Assembly: GCA_043817815.1 (NCBI GenBank)
Contig: JBDRGM010000024.1
Location: forward strand, 1-56,697
Length of the DNA stretch: 56,697 nucleotides
Origin: an archaeon
GTDB lineage: Archaea; Nanobdellota; Nanobdellia; Pacearchaeales; GW2011-AR1
Reading direction: 5' to 3'
Positions 52,552 through 56,585 of this stretch are shown here, piece by piece. The stretch's first letter is position 1. Each line of letters opens with the position of its first letter. Under the pieces are notes generated by a model. The model worked only from the letters and a program-made list of their open reading frames with translations, searched no databases and was not told the origin of the DNA. The position numbers and the translations under genes are program-made.

Positions 52552-52571
52552 AGGGTTTAACATCAGAATTT

Positions 52572-52594
52572 AACGAAGTCGTGAGCGTAGCGAA
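52572..52594 (+). repeat. Partial module copy (AACGAAG + GTGAGCGTAGCGAA)
   Basis: AACGAAG at 52572-52578 and GTGAGCGTAGCGAA at 52581-52594. The 14-mer is identical to those in copies A and B except for the variable 8th base (t/a/g). Confidence 0.55.
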
Positions 52595-52629
52595 CGATTT
52601 GAGGAACGGAGAGGTAAATATAAGGCGAC

Positions 52630-52643
52630 GTATTTATAAATAC
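52630..52643 (+). promoter_or_regulatory. TATA-like element inside a perfect 14-bp palindrome GTATTTATAAATAC
   Basis: TTTATAAA (52633-52640) ends 25 nt upstream of the ATG at 52666. There is no SD-like sequence, consistent with an archaeal leaderless transcript. Confidence 0.35.
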
Positions 52644-52665
52644 AAGAAGATCTCTAATGTAATAA

Positions 52666-53226
52666 ATGTCAAATATAATTAAAGTTCCCAATGTTGTAAT
52701 TGATTCAAGTGAACCTCCAACTAATCTTTCACCTAAATATTTTAATCGAGAAGCTCAAATTGAAAGAGAATATTTGAGATGTGCAAAAAAAGTGAAAAGA
52801 CTTTGGCCAGCAATTAGTTCAAACAAATTGCTAGGAATATTTTGTGGAGGTTCTCAAACTCATGGAGATTATTCAGATGATTCAGATGTTGATTTTGTAG
52901 TATATAGGGTGGGCAAACCAATGCAAATTCATGCTGAGTATTCTGGACTTGTTGATGGTCTAAAAGATGAGTTTGATATCTATGTTAGACATTGGTGGGG
53001 TGCTGAAGGATCAAAAGGAGGATCAATTGATTTTGTAATCACATCAATGCCATTTGGAATTCTATTTGATTTATTAGACTGTAGATGGAAACAGTCAAAC
53101 ATGTCTCGTAATCCTATGATAAAAGAGTGGAGTTCTTTATTAGATGATCTTCCACCAGATTACCAAACATTAAAACAAGACATGGGTTTTCTAAATTATT
53201 GTTTAAATCAACGAACAATACATTAA
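52666..53226 (+). CDS. Minimal Pol-beta-superfamily nucleotidyltransferase (MNT/KNTase-like)
   Basis: 186 aa. GIFCGGSQTHGDYSDDSDVDFVVY (GS-x(n)-DxD), then GGSIDFVITS (third acidic residue). No HEPN partner ORF is visible. Confidence 0.65.
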   Translation: MSNIIKVPNVVIDSSEPPTNLSPKYFNREAQIEREYLRCAKKVKRLWPAISSNKLLGIFCGGSQTHGDYSDDSDVDFVVYRVGKPMQIHAEYSGLVDGLKDEFDIYVRHWWGAEGSKGGSIDFVITSMPFGILFDLLDCRWKQSNMSRNPMIKEWSSLLDDLPPDYQTLKQDMGFLNYCLNQRTIH

Positions 53227-53351
53227 GCCGCCTTATATTTATTGAACATCGCGATTAAACAACCCATAGGGCTCGAGGTGTAGAAATTTTTCCCTCGTGA
53301 AACAGAGCTGGAAAAATTGCGGAACACTCGAGTGTTTTTGCGAAGCAAAAA

Positions 53352-53465
53352 TATGGGAAAAATGTGTCCCGAAAAAAGAGGGTGAGCGAAGCGAAAACAT
53401 TTTTCTGTTTAATCTGCTGTTCCCAGACCCGAAGGGCACGAGCTGAAACACAAAGTTTCCTCGTG
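53352..53465 (+). repeat. G+C-rich hairpin module, copy A
   Basis: TGGG + stem GAAAAATGT (53357-53365) / ACATTTTTC (53397-53405) enclosing GTGAGCGAAGCGAA, then TGTTTAA. This is followed by hairpin CACGAG-CT-GAAAC-acaaa-GTTTC-CTCGTG (53437-53465). Confidence 0.7.
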
Positions 53466-53590
53466 AGTTTAAAATTTCATTTTAGGGTGGGGGAGGAGGA
53501 TGGTTGTTTCCGACGACCAAAAAATTAGAGAGAAAAGCCTGCCCTTTTTGTTTCTTTTTTCTAAAAAGAAAATGAGGGGTTCTTTTGTTT

Positions 53591-54088
53591 TTATTTTTTC
53601 TTTAAAATACTTTTTGGAATAACTAATGGATATATCCATCTAAGAATATAGTAAAAACCAATAACAATTATAACTGAAAGAATTAAATTTAACGGAGTTG
53701 AGATTAGACCCAAAATTAGACTCAGAACTCCTAATAAAAAAATGCTTAGATTAGAAAATATTTTTTTATAAAAAGGGATACTATTTTCTAAATTTTCATA
53801 TTCTTGTCTTAATTCTTCTTTATATTTTATTTTCATAATTTCAAAATCTTCGGTTTTTTTGAAATCTTCCCAATACTCATTGAATCTTTCATCGGAAACA
53901 CCATATTCCTCTTGATATTTCTCAGACATATTGTTTCTAGTATTATCTATCATATTTTGATAAGAAGATTCAAGATAATTTTCTAAATATCTTTCTTGCT
54001 GAATGTTGTAATTCCATAAAGATATAATCAAAAATAAAACTAAAAATCCTAAGATAAAGTAAGTCTTTCTAAATGCCTTTTCATTCAT
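53591..54088 (-). CDS. Hypothetical membrane protein (1 N-terminal + 2 C-terminal predicted TM helices, acidic Tyr/Glu-rich middle)
   Basis: 165 aa. TYFILGFLVLFLIISLW, then IFSNLSIFLLGVLSLILGLI and LILSVIIVIGFYYIL. Overlaps the upstream ORF by 4 nt. Confidence 0.45.
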   Translation of the reverse strand: MNEKAFRKTYFILGFLVLFLIISLWNYNIQQERYLENYLESSYQNMIDNTRNNMSEKYQEEYGVSDERFNEYWEDFKKTEDFEIMKIKYKEELRQEYENLENSIPFYKKIFSNLSIFLLGVLSLILGLISTPLNLILSVIIVIGFYYILRWIYPLVIPKSILKKK

Positions 54089-54552
54089 TTTAATTTTCCT
54101 TCAAAAGTAATTTTAATTTCATTTTTCTCTTTTGGGTTTTTTGGCTTTGGGTTTTTTGAAATAAATTTGTTTATCTCTTCATAAATTTTACTTTTTTGTT
54201 CTCCAGAGAGATTTGCTAAACCAGCAATATTTTTTACATCTACCGCTTGCGTTTGTATGACTCCTTTTTCAGTTAGTTCAAATTTTAAAGTAAATTTTTC
54301 AGATTTCTCCTCTGAAAAATTATAAATTACCTTTCCTTTTAATTTTGTCTTTCCTATTGCTTCTCTGTTTTCTTTTGCTTGTTTTCTTCTTTCTCGTTCA
54401 AATTTGTTAGCTTGTTCTAATGCTTCTTGCATATTTGAAGTTTTGACAGGCTCCTCTTTCATGCCTGCTTTTTTAAGATAATAGTCTCTATTCTTATCTT
54501 CCTGGCTTTTGAATTTCTTTTTCTTACCAAATATCTTTTTTAAAAAGTTCAT
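54085..54552 (-). CDS. Hypothetical basic, Lys-rich protein
   Basis: The ATG at 54552 (MNFLKKIFGKKKK...) is preferred over the track start 54594. A TATA-like TTTTATAT lies about 20 nt upstream on the minus strand. No recognisable domain. Confidence 0.4.
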   Translation of the reverse strand: MNFLKKIFGKKKKFKSQEDKNRDYYLKKAGMKEEPVKTSNMQEALEQANKFERERRKQAKENREAIGKTKLKGKVIYNFSEEKSEKFTLKFELTEKGVIQTQAVDVKNIAGLANLSGEQKSKIYEEINKFISKNPKPKNPKEKNEIKITFEGKLK

Positions 54553-54597
54553 AAAATAAATAGAAAAAGAGAATATAAAAAAGTATCTGTGCATTAA

Positions 54598-54606
54598 TTA
54601 TATAAA
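54598..54606 (+). promoter_or_regulatory. TATA-like element TTATATAAA upstream of the small 2-TM ORF
   Basis: 22 nt separate the element from the ATG at 54629. It lies in a 76-nt divergent intergenic region shared with ORF 54085..54552. Confidence 0.3.
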
Positions 54607-54628
54607 GATTGAAACTTCTATAATTAAA

Positions 54629-54847
54629 ATGGCAAAAAAAGATTTACCAACAATAAAACAAAAAAATATGTTTTGGTGTGGTGCATTAGTGGGTCTCGTG
54701 GGAGGTGTATTTGGAGGATTATTTGCAAATTCATTTTATGATTATCTTAAGGATTTATTGGGAGGAGGGATTACAACAATTTTGTCAGGTTTGGTTTTTT
54801 TGGGAATTATTTATTTCGCATCTAAACAAATTACAAAGATAATCTAA
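54629..54847 (+). CDS. Small Gly-rich two-TM membrane protein
   Basis: 72 aa. MFWCGALVGLVGGVFGGLFA and ITTILSGLVFLGIIYFA. Its TATA-like element ends 22 nt upstream of the ATG. Confidence 0.4.
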   Translation: MAKKDLPTIKQKNMFWCGALVGLVGGVFGGLFANSFYDYLKDLLGGGITTILSGLVFLGIIYFASKQITKII

Positions 54848-55157
54848 CTAATTCTCGAAGTGAGACAGGCAAATTGTCCGTAGGACTAAGAACCCCTCAA
54901 AGTAAATGAAAAATTTGGGTGTAACGAAGTGAAACCTTTTACCCCTTGTTATACAAAGTGCGAAGCATTTTGTTGGTTTTCTCGTCGGTCGGGTAAAAGA
55001 AGTTTTTCTCTGAAAACAAAGTTTTCAGCTATCTGTCCGAAGGACGCAGGATTTTTTCTCCTATCTCGGGTGGGCAAAAAATGAAATTTTAAATTTGGTC
55101 GGCTTTGCCGACGCTGGGAACATCGGGCTTAAACGAAGTTGCGACCGTAGGGAGCAA

Positions 55158-55195
55158 TTTGGGAAAATGCCGAGCTGAGGCATTTTCCGTTTAAG
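55158..55195 (+). repeat. G+C-rich hairpin module, short copy C
   Basis: TTTG + stem GGAAAATGCC (55162-55171), loop GAGCTGA, GGCATTTTCC (55179-55188), then GTTTAAG. It has the same flanks as stem 1 of copies A and B but lacks the internal insert. A GTGAGC-CGAAG-GCGAA variant lies at 55211-55226. Confidence 0.6.
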
Positions 55196-55280
55196 CCCTG
55201 TTAAGTGAGGGTGAGCCGAAGGCGAAAGCGCAGCGTCCCCCAAGCGACTGAAAGGAGTGCAGAGTTCCTGTGGTCGCCCC

Positions 55281-56048
55281 CTATCTAATAATTGATTCTC
55301 GTATAACATCTAAAATAGAATTAAGAGCTTGTTTTTTCTGTTCGGCAGAGGCAATTCTGTAATCAGATTCTGAATAGCGTTTATCCTTTACATCAAGTAA
55401 AGCAACTGCTGGAATTCCAAAAAGTCTGCTACATGCCAATACAGAAGCACTTTCATATTCTCCAGAATCACAATCTTGTTCACCAATTTCAGCAAGAGAA
55501 ATCTTCCACCACATTGCTTCATCCATCAACTGAGTTGGTTCTGTAAAATCAGGTAAATATCCTGGTGTGATACAGCAGTAAACTTTACTTGGTCTAAAAT
55601 CTAAGGATTTCTCTTGCGCAATACCTAGAACTCTTTCCAGCAGTTGCGGATTTGGTTGAGTGACATCATTAACGCCTCTGCCCCTGGCATTTTGATAAAT
55701 GCTTTGTTCAAAGCTATCGGGTGAAAATGTGTCTCTTGCAAAAACAAGATTGCCGGGCTCTAATTCAGAATTCCTGAAAGCATATACACTACCTACAAAG
55801 TATACTTCTGGTTTTTGGTCGGTTGGTAAATATTCTGAGGCATATTCAATCATGGCTTGCCCAGCAACAGCTCCAGAATATCCAGTAAACAATACTTTGG
55901 TTAAACCATCCAATCCCTCATACAATGAGTCATTAAAATTGCCATGCCAAAACCGACCATCAGATTTTGGAACTTTGTGCAAATCTAATTTTTCAGTAAA
56001 TGCTTTCAGGACTTTTTCAGTTGTTTTTGGACTAATTATCAAAGACAT
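55281..56048 (-). CDS. Nucleoside phosphorylase/nucleosidase superfamily protein (PNP_UDP_1-like)
   Basis: VLFTGYSGAVAGQAMIEYA, VYFVGSVYAF and DCDSGEYESASVLACSRLFGIPAVALLDVKD resemble the phosphate-loop, core and D/E-M/Y-E-S/T-A blocks of MTA/purine/uridine phosphorylase-type enzymes. The ATG at 56048 is preferred over the TTG at 56063. Visibly more G+C-rich than the rest of the window. Confidence 0.6.
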   Translation of the reverse strand: MSLIISPKTTEKVLKAFTEKLDLHKVPKSDGRFWHGNFNDSLYEGLDGLTKVLFTGYSGAVAGQAMIEYASEYLPTDQKPEVYFVGSVYAFRNSELEPGNLVFARDTFSPDSFEQSIYQNARGRGVNDVTQPNPQLLERVLGIAQEKSLDFRPSKVYCCITPGYLPDFTEPTQLMDEAMWWKISLAEIGEQDCDSGEYESASVLACSRLFGIPAVALLDVKDKRYSESDYRIASAEQKKQALNSILDVIRESIIR

Positions 56049-56070
56049 AATAAAGAGAATCAATTGTAAT

Positions 56071-56078
56071 TATATAAA
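56071..56078 (-). promoter_or_regulatory. TATA-like element TTTATATA upstream of the PNP-like gene
   Basis: On the minus strand, 22 nt separate the element from the ATG at 56048. It lies inside the IR bracket. Confidence 0.35.
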
Positions 56079-56153
56079 CATTATTGTTCTTGGGGCGACC
56101 ACAGGAATTGCACATAACAATTAGTTAAACAAAGTTTTTTCTGAAAGAAAAAA

Positions 56154-56269
56154 TTTGGGAAAATTCTGTAGCCCTAAAGGGCGTGAGCGGAGCGAAGGAA
56201 TTTTCTGTTTAACGGATGTTCGCCGACCGAACGAAGTGAGGCACGAGCTGACGCTACAGCGTCCTCGTG
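56154..56269 (+). repeat. G+C-rich hairpin module, copy B
   Basis: TTTGGG + stem GAAAATTC (56159-56166) / GAATTTTC (56198-56205) enclosing GTGAGCGGAGCGAA, then TGTTTAA. This is followed by hairpin CACGAG-CT-GACGC-taca-GCGTC-CTCGTG (56242-56269). Same order and strand as copy A. Confidence 0.7.
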
Positions 56270-56302
56270 AGAAAAAATCTGTTCACATCCGATTTTACGC
56301 GT

Positions 56303-56346
56303 AATTGTCGACATTTTATTTTTTAATTATTTTGTCGTCGACAATT
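56303..56346. repeat. Perfect 10-bp stem hairpin AATTGTCGAC ... GTCGACAATT with a 24-nt A/T-only loop
   Basis: Arms at 56303-56312 and 56337-56346. Pairing extends by CG after one mismatch. Confidence 0.6.
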
Positions 56347-56471
56347 TCGTTTAATCAGCGAGGTTATGCGACAATTTTAATTTCGCATTTGAGTGTTAAA
56401 CGAAGCTTAAAATCTTAAAGGATGTGAATTTACCGACGGAGAAGGCAGATTTTTATTTTGGCGAACACGAA

Positions 56472-56497
56472 GTTATCATAAATAAACTTATGATAAC
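56472..56497. repeat. Perfect 10-bp stem hairpin GTTATCATAA-ataaac-TTATGATAAC
   Basis: Arms at 56472-56481 and 56488-56497. It lies about 90 nt downstream of the stop of the partial minus-strand gene, beyond oligo-T tracts. Confidence 0.55.
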
Positions 56498-56585
56498 ATT
56501 CCAAAGGAGGGCATAAAAAGATGAATTATTAATAAAAGAAATAGGAAAAAACATTAAAAAAAATAAAAATAAAAATAAAATAATC

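Follow-up and report, generated by a model that had tools for sequence, protein, structure and literature searches.

The region 52561-56498 of the window (the whole stretch of DNA that was analysed, 56,697 nt, from an uncultivated archaeon) is best explained as an integron-type, site-specific-recombination cassette array, which has no adjacent integrase, runs along the minus strand and begins at a distance of 4 nt from a dif-like (chromosome dimer-resolution) site; we give this reading a probability of about 0.72. It is well supported that the units of the array are mobile gene cassettes. Their order from the dif-like site is: an ORF-less cassette X, unit 3, unit 2 and unit 1, four in total (Table 1). 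The preliminary description of this DNA had reported units 1 to 3, each bracketed by a perfect inverted repeat. All six arms have been located, together with the GTGCA/TGCAC extension of the 16-nt repeat of unit 3, and the repeat indeed lies 0 nt (unit 3) and 2 nt (unit 1) from the stop codon. These repeats are the arms of the cassettes. Cassette X, the fourth unit, and a second, outer arm pair of unit 2 had been overlooked.

Table 1. Features of the cassette array, listed from the dif-like site onwards
Feature	Position	Strand	Details
dif-like site	56471..56498		AGTTATCATAA-ATAAAC-TTATGATAACA; 11-6-11, 10/11 complementary
Cassette X	56118..56465	-	no ORF; 5' end TTCGCC
X, arms	56420-56428 / 56282-56290		plus CAGAT/ATCTG
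X, attC-like element	56118-56281	-	R'' = rc 56218-56224; L boxes 56207-56213, 56124-56130; R' G at 56118
Cassette unit 3	55121..56117	-	5' end TTATGTG-caa, 5' arm, TATA-like promoter, PNP-like gene, 3' arm, attC-like element
Unit 3, 5' arm	56092..56107	-	GGGGCGACCACAGGAA; 3 nt past R' box
Unit 3, PNP-like gene	55281-56048		cargo
Unit 3, 3' arm	55265..55280	-	TTCCTGTGGTCGCCCC; adjoins stop codon
Unit 3, attC-like element	55121..55264	-	conserved 57-nt region; R'' = rc of 55200-55207, GTTAAGTG; spacer cccgat; L boxes 55189-55195, 55128-55134; R' G at 55121
Cassette unit 2	53247..55120	-	5' end TTCCCAG; two arm pairs; three small ORFs
Unit 2, outer arms	53468-53483 / 55078-55093		16 nt, perfect
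Unit 2, inner arms	53573-53584 / 54888-54899		12 nt, perfect
Unit 2, ORF	54629-54847	+	small
Unit 2, ORF	54085-54594	-	small
Unit 2, ORF	53591-54088	-	small
Unit 2, attC-like element	53247-53467	-	R'' = rc 53419-53426; L boxes 53407-53413, 53254-53260; R' G at 53247
Cassette unit 1	52561..53246	-	last of array; 5' end TTCAAT-AA
Unit 1, arms	52615-52627 / 53229-53241		13 nt, perfect
Unit 1, cargo	52666-53226	+	nucleotidyltransferase-like orphan gene
Unit 1, truncated attC-like end	52561-52614	-	cgacttc-GTTAAATT-ctgat-G

The cassettes are built in a sequential order: (i) a 5' end G|TTxxxxx, in which TTxxxxx is what remains, on the 3' side, of an R' box after cutting at G|TT; (ii) 2-3 A-rich bases; (iii) one or two specific 5' arms; (iv) cargo in either orientation, with its own promoter; (v) the matching 3' arm or arms; (vi) an attC-like element. 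The latter, 150-230 nt long, consists of a conserved region of 55-70 nt, R''(..AAC), about 6 nt, L'', a variable multi-hairpin loop, L', about 6 nt, and the terminal G|. Beyond GTT/AAC, the R boxes of the window depart from the GTTRRRY/RYYYAAC consensus, and once integrated, an element has just 3-4 bp of pairing between its R'' and R'. The 5' end of a cassette matches its own R'': GTTCGCC of cassette X is complementary to GGCGAAC at 7/7 positions, and GTTCCCAG of unit 2 to CTGGGAAC at 8/8. An nhmmer profile of the attC-like family matches the element of unit 3 (55264-55116, E 4e-35) and finds copies outside its training set in the window (cassette X, 56231-56125, minus strand, E 6e-6) and in the loci L024, L025, L031 and L033; all recovered copies are oriented away from dif. 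Strand polarity is displayed by the C-GNA-G mini-hairpin motifs, 21 of which lie on the bottom strand of the window and none on the top strand; for CGAAG the bottom:top counts in four other arrays are 10:0, 13:1, 4:0 and 12:0. The cassette sites probably fold as single-stranded bottom-strand DNA.

Comparison with other loci revealed the PNP-like unit in eight differing genomic contexts, the window and seven others (L001/L010, L002, L003, L007, L008 and L009). Homology between the window and L001 (56120-55197, 94.5% identity) has one limit at G|TT and the other 3 nt beyond R''; that with L008 (56137-55119) covers the cassette and its attC-like element, ending at the next G|TT. The breaks thus fall no more than 2-3 nt from the G|TT positions predicted. 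Both ends of unit 3, GTTAAGTG-aaa-arm and arm...CACTTAAC, are kept across the homologues, and the attC-like element moves with the cassette in L008, L007 and L009. L002 is a canonical integron attC array (ACCTAAC...GTTAGGT and similar sites) in which the PNP-like cassette sits in register. In the near-identical strain L009, identity is 98.6% through unit 3 and the shell of unit 2, and different cargo was found between the same repeats, as a strain comparison proposed in the preliminary description might reveal: both unit 2 arm pairs are kept, with a flank identity of 89-98%, and a 146-aa protein and a 258-aa HEPN protein replace the three ORFs.

The first account had also offered mobile insertion cassettes with terminal inverted repeats, mobilised in trans, and of its three readings this came closest. 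Mobilised cassettes are borne out by the eight contexts, the sharp breakpoints and the cargo swap of unit 2; the transposon appearance is not. Non-autonomous transposons of this kind, or MITE-like elements, whose repeats would be read by a DDE or HUH transposase elsewhere, do share with the units inverted repeats at both ends of transposase-free passenger genes, and a DDE transposase gene adjoins the PNP unit in L001/L010. The IS of L001 is, however, a separate insertion that divides the unit 3 attC-like element, leaving profile positions 1-68 and 78-153 on either side. No target-site duplications flank the PNP-like unit in the four contexts inspected, and the arm sequences vary between cassettes, so that there is no shared terminal repeat and no common transposase site. 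The ends obey G|TT...AAC, one cassette fits a canonical integron array, and the units, parted by long attC-like separators, occur only in arrays polar from the dif-like site, not dispersed. A transposon is therefore highly improbable. Even less credence is given to invertons, flipped by a recombinase between the inverted repeats: promoter-plus-gene units are flanked by such repeats and cargo occurs in both orientations within arrays, but the orientation of the PNP gene relative to arms and attC-like element is identical in all loci keeping them, and flipping a self-contained promoter-plus-gene unit would change nothing obvious.

Pairing of the arms in a long read-through RNA, for mRNA processing or looping-out after the manner of archaeal rRNA processing stems, had been proposed as well and is not upheld; we consider it improbable, if slightly less so than a transposon. 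The intergenic regions fold better than shuffles (z -3.0 to -3.8), and strict strand polarity of the motifs would suit a transcript too. Against this, each unit's TATA-like promoter is its own and lies downstream of the 5' arm, cargo genes are encoded on either strand with respect to the arms, and the between-genome breakpoints are at the DNA level. The helices pair perfectly and lack a bulge-helix-bulge motif, and Rfam gave no matching family. As RNA, only 3/14 CGAAG motifs would form a cUUCGg tetraloop; as DNA, every one of them fits a C-GAA-G triloop.

The window's dif-like site has its architecture and inner bases in common with the dif sites of six related lineages, where these precede xerA by 55-85 nt. 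In these six xerA lineages of small archaea comparable arrays begin 2-4 nt from dif, beside the housekeeping xerA, and the loci examined carry one 11-6-11 site each. Alongside the dif-like site of the window there is no xerA; the contig ends at 56697. The earlier statement that no transposase or integrase is present holds for the 30 window ORFs scanned, and neither the window nor any related locus was found to contain an integron integrase (IntI). The sole neighbouring recombinase is the XerA of L008, without the IntI extra domain. The cassettes may be recombined by the host XerA, or by an IntI acting in trans.

That the brackets are not a chance occurrence had been concluded from an expectation which proved too optimistic. 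Across the window, 52 perfect inverted repeats of at least 12 nt (arms 100-3000 nt apart) were counted versus 43 +/- 7 in dinucleotide shuffles, so repeats at this spacing are common, and only the GC-rich unit 3 repeat is rare on its own, its 36 bits being reached in 1/100 shuffles. The conclusion itself stands on position: for the three units, the longest repeat that the two intergenic flanks share is 13, 16 and 16 nt, compared with shuffle means of 7.5-8.6 nt, and 0/300 shuffles reach the observed value for any unit. Arm conservation across other genomes settles the non-chance origin. The arms are unit-specific inside the window, as first described; elsewhere identical arms enclose other cargo (L009 vs the window; L025 c1 vs L033 c4). 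Perfect arms of 9-18 nt, often nested, occur in 14/14 cassettes of six loci (four xerA lineages and the window), whose matched ends are exactly complementary over 13 nt on average (range 8-18) outside the R box, versus a mean of 7 nt (95th percentile 9) for mismatched ends.

The arms lengthen the R''/R' stem toward the cargo, with a constant gap of 2-3 nt between arm and R' box. Once a cassette is excised as a circle, its 3' arm and R'' would come to adjoin R' and the 5' arm; a long hairpin with interruptions, enclosing the crossover point, could then form from the stacked arm helix, R box and L box, and integration would cut it at G|TT, so that the outer part of the hairpin would bracket the cargo. 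Folding of the two unit 3 ends, joined and treated as DNA, gives a single hairpin of about -52 kcal/mol with arm-arm and L box-L box pairing. The arms may serve as a clamp that stabilises the AT-rich R box or pairs the cassette ends. The earlier idea that genes were inserted into hairpin loops matches this excised-cassette topology and, as an account of origin, is possible.

In that account the arms would be relics of cassette building, cargo having been loaded into pre-existing palindromic chassis and the perfect repeat decaying neutrally thereafter, which is a minority possibility of some weight; it is compatible with the cassette explanation of what the units are. The 3' arm of unit 3 is kept in L001, L007, L008, L009, L003 and L002, and the 5' arm in L001, L008, L003 and L002; L007 has lost the latter and its cassette persists. 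The arms of the PNP cassette, complementary at 16/16 positions, are so at only about 11/15 and 10/14 in copies that have diverged; this decay has roughly the rate expected for two independently diverging sequences, and no compensatory changes were found among the copies compared; strong pairing constraint is therefore not demonstrated. Identical arms around other cargo also agree with relics. Perfect arms in every one of the 14 cassettes are nevertheless hard to keep without selection or frequent renewal, and their fixed spacing from the R' box is unfavourable to relics too.

A described system with this layout was said to be unknown. Integron cassette arrays, such as archaeal integrons and CALINs (Ghaly et al. 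2022, PMC9668308), are in fact the known relative; the clamp arms and the dif/xerA-anchored array layout could not be found in the literature searched. Integrons likewise carry small, often orphan or toxin-antitoxin/defence-type genes between imperfect-palindrome R''(..AAC)-spacer-L''...L'-spacer-R'(GTT..) sites, which are more similar within a lineage than between lineages; the breakpoints fall at G|TT, each cassette begins with bases complementary to the R'' that it carries, and one cassette is common to the canonical array L002. The differences relate to the recombinase (no IntI, and a housekeeping-type XerA where one is seen), the anchor (a dif-type 11-6-11 site in place of attI), the sites (150-230 nt, with an extra conserved region and R boxes departing from GTTRRRY), the own promoters and either orientation of the cassettes, and the clamp arms outside the R box, which the 7 other cassettes of the L002 array do not have. 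In Xer-dependent elements (IMEX at dif, Acinetobacter pdif modules), gene modules without their own recombinase, bracketed by inverted sequences, similarly gather at or beside a Xer recombination site, and the same module occurs in different contexts. In contrast to the cassettes, pdif modules have between them full dif-like XerC/XerD sites that alternate in orientation; here the inter-cassette sites are long attC-like hairpin elements of single orientation, and the repeats that bracket the cargo do not copy the Xer site but differ from cassette to cassette.

For unit 1, mobility is suggested by its layout. The nucleotidyltransferase-like gene has no homologue in the protein collection searched, and the terminal element of the unit is similar to the truncated last element of the L008 array.

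The three repeat-bracketed gene units of the window and a fourth, ORF-less one (cassette X) are recombination cassettes whose ends lie at G|TT. The cassette-specific inverted repeats bracketing their cargo (the arms) represent complementarity between the two ends of a cassette, and the arrays are polar from a dif site. The array was parsed manually and is read on the minus strand, the arms being named 5' and 3' in that direction.

Features of the cassette array and its surroundings in the window, in plus-strand coordinates
Feature	Position	Strand	Remarks
dif-like site, AGTTATCATAA-ATAAAC-TTATGATAACA	56471-56498		array head
Cassette X	56465-56118	minus	opens G|TTCGCC, 4 nt past the dif-like site
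Arms of cassette X	56282-56290 / 56420-56428
Unit 3 (PNP cassette)	56117-55121	minus	opens G|TTATGTG
Arms of unit 3	55265-55280 / 56092-56107
Unit 2	55120-53247	minus	opens G|TTCCCAG
Arms of unit 2, first pair	53573-53584 / 54888-54899
Arms of unit 2, second pair	53468-53483 / 55078-55093		perfect, 16 nt
Unit 1	53246-52561	minus	opens G|TTCAAT
Arms of unit 1	52615-52627 / 53229-53241
Direct repeat	53331-53467 and 56133-56271		two copies of the attC-like element
Truncated distal element	52561-52614
Hairpin GTCC-(T/G)(T/A)(C/G)-GGAC	54876-54886
Nucleotidyltransferase-like protein	52666-53226
Mini-ORF ATG AAT TAT TAA	56521-56532	plus	beyond the dif-like site
Glycan-type gene cluster	25611-49817

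The cassettes are joined by attC-like elements; the window has three complete ones on the minus strand, at about 56118-56281, 55121-55264 and 53247-53467, and one truncated. Past the 3' arm, each complete element starts with a conserved region (ctctgc... or ctcacgagg...) and an R'' box ending in AAC, continues with a 4-6-nt spacer, L'' (xTTAAAC) and a multi-hairpin loop containing cccaaatt and acttc, and closes with L' (GTTTAAx), a 5-6-nt spacer (cccgat, cgcgat or taatt) and G. The same parse holds in L007, L008, L025, L029 and L033, five of the related loci fetched from other genomes or contigs (L001-L034). The direct repeat of the window consists of two copies of this element, 72% identical, in which the hairpins are preserved through paired changes. 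An nhmmer profile built from eight elements finds copies on which it had not been trained, at 56231-56125 in the window and in L024, L025, L031 and L033; a crude scan for AAC...GTT box pairs gave 218 matches per strand and was far too unspecific. The first bases of a cassette pair with its own R'' at 7/7 positions in cassette X, 7/8 in unit 3 and 8/8 in unit 2. The R' boxes of the window (GTTCGCC, GTTATGT, GTTCCCA and GTTCAAT) depart from the consensus GTTRRRY / RYYYAAC and are invariant only in GTT/AAC, and some related cassettes fit it, e.g. GTTAAGT and GTTAGGC. Four elements lie within 3.9 kb, which agrees with the CALIN criterion (at least two attC sites less than 4 kb apart, PMC9668308), provided that the elements count as attC.

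The truncated element closes unit 1 and lies 10 nt away from a glycosyltransferase stop codon. The distal element is cut down alike in L008 (6611-6758); in both arrays acttc-GTTAAATT-spacer-G|TT remains, and R'' and L'' are absent. These matching last elements suggest a common structure of the distal array end.

The product of unit 3 is a 255-aa PNP/UDP-phosphorylase-like protein (weak PF01048 matches in homologues; JGI names) with 41 homologues, and the neighbourhoods of its close relatives are unrelated. The PNP unit adjoins a tRNA-synthetase-like gene and an IS in L001/L010, lies within an array of small same-strand ORFs in L002, is flanked by SnoaL and PIN/MazE genes in L003, and stands between an unknown gene and ksgA in L008; further contexts are L007 and L009. 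Its ends are kept in all close relatives, as GTTAAGTG-aaa-arm and arm...CACTTAAC. The window and L001 are 94.5% identical over 56120-55197; one end of this homology is no more than 2 nt away from the R' box G|TT, and the other is 3 nt beyond R''. Compared with L008, the identity is 88.6% over 56137-55119, a match that takes in the cassette with the 145-nt element after it and ends at the G|TT that comes next. The homology breakpoints, at 56120/56118 and 55119/55121, match a crossover between the G and TT of R'. The bracket is absent from distant PNP homologues in a Methanosarcinales MAG and a Saccharibacteria MAG, and a genome-collection scan returned only three PNP loci, none with the bracket. 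Exact-protein look-ups of the PNP-like and nucleotidyltransferase proteins of the window gave no match; the latter is an orphan, and unit 1 is assigned as a putative mobile cassette from its layout.

L002 is a canonical integron array with attC sites such as ACCTAAC-agcgtc...gaaac-GTTAGGT, and the PNP cassette in it starts with G|TTAAGT and ends with ACTTAAC and a short attC. The sharing of one cassette by a window-type and a canonical integron array shows an exchange of cassettes between these two array types. In L001 the element is complete, but an IS divides it, with profile positions 1-68 and 78-153 on opposite sides of the IS. This IS (1521-3065 in L001, 770-2320 in L010) encodes a 495-aa DDE transposase (DDE_Tnp_1/DUF772), separates R'' from L'' in the PNP cassette's attC-like element, into which it is inserted, and may target attC-like sites.

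The cargo is exchanged as well. Over a stretch that begins with the PNP gene, includes the next element and takes in the 230-nt 5' shell of unit 2, L009 and the window are 98.6% identical; in the 3' shell of that unit the identity is 89-95%. L009 keeps both arm pairs of unit 2, and where the window has three small ORFs between them, L009 has 1.25 kb coding for two proteins, a membrane protein of 146 aa and a HEPN-domain protein of 258 aa. In this strain comparison different cargo therefore stands between the same repeats, one of the signs to look for that the preliminary description had named. Likewise, the 12-nt arm TCAGAAGTCGGC is common to cassette 1 of L025 (the first from dif) and cassette 4 of L033, which belong to different lineages, and it brackets a 197-aa unknown protein in one of them and an M23 peptidase in the other. 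The same arms around different genes imply that the arms belong to the chassis and that the cargo within can vary. Several cassettes have a conserved small GTCC...GGAC hairpin after their inner 5' arm, with equivalents in L001, L008 and L009; the cargo starts to diverge right behind this hairpin, which may mark a cargo-loading boundary.

Several cargo proteins are of the defence or toxin-antitoxin type: the HEPN protein (L009, 1143-2350), the orphan nucleotidyltransferase-like protein of the window, a GmrSD-family protein (L033, 4443-6101) and a PIN/MazE pair (L003, 10892-11480). Bacterial chromosomal integrons carry cargo of the same type. The arrays are a strain-variable hotspot in small archaeal genomes, with such cargo.

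All six arms named in the preliminary description are present exactly as tabulated, and its placing of repeats next to stop codons is accurate, as no gap separates the unit-3 arm from the stop codon of its minus-strand gene and the unit-1 arm lies 2 nt past that of its own. It missed the second arm pair of unit 2 and the ORF-less fourth unit. Its statement that three such repeats in a row are not chance stood in a test restricted to the intergenic flanks: the longest match between the two flanks of each unit is 13, 16 and 16 nt, against shuffle means of 7.5-8.6 nt, and the observed length was reached in 0/300 shuffles for any unit. The estimate behind the statement was too generous, as the window holds 52 perfect inverted repeats of at least 12 nt spaced 100-3000 nt apart, compared with 43 +/- 7 in dinucleotide shuffles. 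The GC content of the window is 32%, with GC-rich islands almost confined to the last 4 kb, and of the brackets just that of unit 3, GC-rich and scoring 36 bits, is rare on its own, being reached in 1/100 shuffles. Judged from sequence comparison, it is conservation in other genomes that settles the non-chance nature of the repeats.

The 5' arm starts 2-3 nt beyond the R' box in every cassette, and the 3' arm directly precedes the conserved region leading to R''; by position, the arms thus prolong the R''/R' stem outward, on its cargo side. When the joined ends of unit 3 are folded as DNA, the arms (16 bp) and L boxes form one interrupted hairpin of about -52 kcal/mol; the folded junction had 3 extra nt, which leave the picture unchanged. 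Arms are present in 14/14 cassettes from six loci (window, L007, L008, L025, L029 and L033). The longest exact complementarity between the own two ends of these 14 cassettes, R box excluded, averages 13.0 nt (range 8-18); for mismatched cassette ends the mean is 7.0 nt and the 95th percentile 9. Many cassettes have nested arms, e.g. 14 + 18 nt in L029 and 13 + 13 nt in L008. In the canonical L002 array, the end complementarity of the other seven cassettes is 5-8 nt, nothing above chance, and so the arms are a trait of this variant and not of integron cassettes generally. Such cassettes can be searched for by their clamp arms, which form a simple sequence signature.

Related arrays in other small archaea are anchored at dif sites beside xerA. 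The L008 array starts 85 nt from the start of a divergent 268-aa tyrosine recombinase, which passes the archaeal XerA model (252.7 bits, cut-off 220) and fails the integron-integrase model (219 vs 265). As the latter match is below the cut-off and falls into two stretches, the L008 recombinase is without the IntI extra domain. Homologues with 62-77% identity are annotated in Aenigmarchaeota, Pacearchaeota, Woesearchaeota and Nanoarchaeota MAGs. Six xerA lineages were compared: L008, L024, L025-27, L028-30, L031-32 and L033-34. In 6/6, a near-perfect 11-6-11 site, e.g. TCATATCATAA-CTTTAG-TTATGATATGA, lies 55-85 nt upstream of xerA. The 11-6-11 arrangement is the published dif architecture (PMC2958812, PMC8371274), and dif is already known to lie close to xerA in Sulfolobales (PMC2958812). 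Five of the six lineages have G|TTxxxxx and the first cassette 2-4 nt beyond dif; L024 has no G|TT beside dif and an attC-like element further out. Contigs with the same xerA and dif part exactly at xxxAAC|AT (L028 vs L029 vs L030; L031 vs L032). Matches to the attC-like profile occur in all six lineages and all point outward, and in L033 at least four cassettes are built in this way, one with GmrSD. The window array starts 4 nt from a weaker dif-like 11-6-11 site without xerA beside it, the contig ending 200 nt further on. On the plus strand beyond this site there is a strong Shine-Dalgarno-like AAGGAGG with a 3-codon mini-ORF.

In agreement with the claim made for the window, no integrase was found: the 30 window ORFs tested, from one complete 56,697-bp contig of an archaeal MAG, include no tyrosine recombinase or integron integrase, and an integrase may be encoded elsewhere in the genome. 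An adjacent intI with the IntI-specific extra domain is absent from the ORFs of L001-L023, and a search with the L008 recombinase of the loci fetched to that point gave no second recombinase.

The non-coding DNA of the array has a pronounced strand polarity. Between 52552 and 56470 all 21 C-GNA-G motifs of the window lie on the plus strand, which is the array's bottom strand, against 0 on the minus strand, with a further flanking base pair in 15/21. Relative to array direction, the bias recurs in L007, L008, L029 and L033; the bottom:top counts of CGAAG in four other arrays are 10:0, 13:1, 4:0 and 12:0. GNA triloops of the d(GCGAAGC) type are unusually stable DNA mini-hairpins, and integron recombination works on the folded bottom strand. 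A cUUCGg RNA tetraloop is possible for only 3/14 CGAAG motifs. The motif bias and the scarcity of RNA-tetraloop candidates favour a putative role in single-stranded DNA.

The preliminary description had also considered mobile insertion cassettes mobilised in trans, and its idea of mobilisation in trans was right in spirit. The cassettes are of the integron type rather than mobile insertion cassettes or MITEs: the arms are cassette-specific and do not form a shared IS-type terminal repeat, and target-site duplications are absent around the PNP unit in the four contexts inspected for them. A transposon with a TTAA target was rejected for the PNP unit, because the other cassettes end in TTCCCAG, TTCGCC or TTCAAT. 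An inverton is contradicted by the orientation of the PNP cassette, identical in all loci examined. The suggestion that the repeats are RNA processing stems was not supported by the sequence, because the helices are perfect over 12-16 bp without the 3-nt bulges of a bulge-helix-bulge motif and the promoter of each unit is located downstream of its 5' arm. The transposon-type, RNA-processing and inverton readings thus each fail at least one tested feature. For a large gene-interrupted structured RNA in the GC-rich intergenic DNA, or an archaeal replication origin with ORB repeats, the cassette breakpoints and the attC-like parse are the better explanation; Rfam (gathering and E-value thresholds) and ARAGORN returned no known RNA family or tRNA.

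Within the cassette reading, the arms may be relics of cargo loading into a palindromic chassis. The arm complementarity of the PNP cassette falls from 16/16 in the window through 15/16 (L008), 14/16 (L001) and 11/15 (L003) to about 10/14 (L002), no compensatory changes were seen among the loci compared, and the L007 PNP cassette has lost its 5' arm; this decay argues against a strong pairing constraint and is what a relic would leave. In the reading preferred here, the arms would have a function. A tyrosine recombinase, putatively XerA or else IntI acting in trans, would excise and insert the cassettes at folded bottom-strand sites. The R boxes are AT-rich and pair over just 3-4 bp in the integrated state, and in the excised cassette the arms would clamp the hairpin base. 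Alternatively, they could pair both cassette ends and draw the flanking sites together. An example of a predicted circle junction is ...GTTTAAGcccgatG|TTATGTGcaaTTCCTG.

Of the known systems, integron arrays come closest, archaeal CALINs among them (PMC9668308); several of their defining features are shared, and the array is best classed as an integron variant. In contrast to integrons, neither an IntI with the extra domain nor the GTTRRRY consensus was found, whereas clamp arms, long composite sites and dif/xerA anchoring are additional. The dependence on a dif site is shared with pdif modules and IMEX. However, pdif modules are bounded by full dif-like sites, whereas the 11-6-11 scans gave one dif-like site per array-bearing locus (and one unrelated match in L006), and the inter-cassette sites share just a TAA-N6-TTA-like core. 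In the literature searched, with partial coverage of subscription papers, neither a link of XerA/dif to archaeal attC-like arrays nor arms outside the R box were found.

The arrays follow integron cassette rules with no IntI in the DNA examined. Integron integrases are close kin of Xer recombinases, and the origin of integrons and the making of cassettes are open questions in the field. We tentatively propose, at a probability of about 0.4, an IntI-less integron analogue in DPANN-type archaea, in which arrays with a clamp stem beyond the R box of each cassette extend outward from dif by xerA and the housekeeping XerA is the likely recombinase, working on attC-like sites of the folded bottom strand. 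If so, dimer resolution by Xer/dif and integrons would be linked by a living intermediate. As arrays without IntI start by dif near xerA, the link between Xer and integrons becomes testable with defined DNA substrates. The arrays offer a credible, though unproven, lead to an IntI-less, Xer/dif-based cassette system widespread in small archaea.

In the remainder of the contig lies a glycan-type cluster with an unusual wealth of radical SAM enzymes, namely at least five SPASM or plain radical SAM proteins and two 512-aa proteins of the B12-binding type. Glycosyltransferases, a GDP-mannose dehydratase-like gene and QueC are located beside the radical SAM genes.
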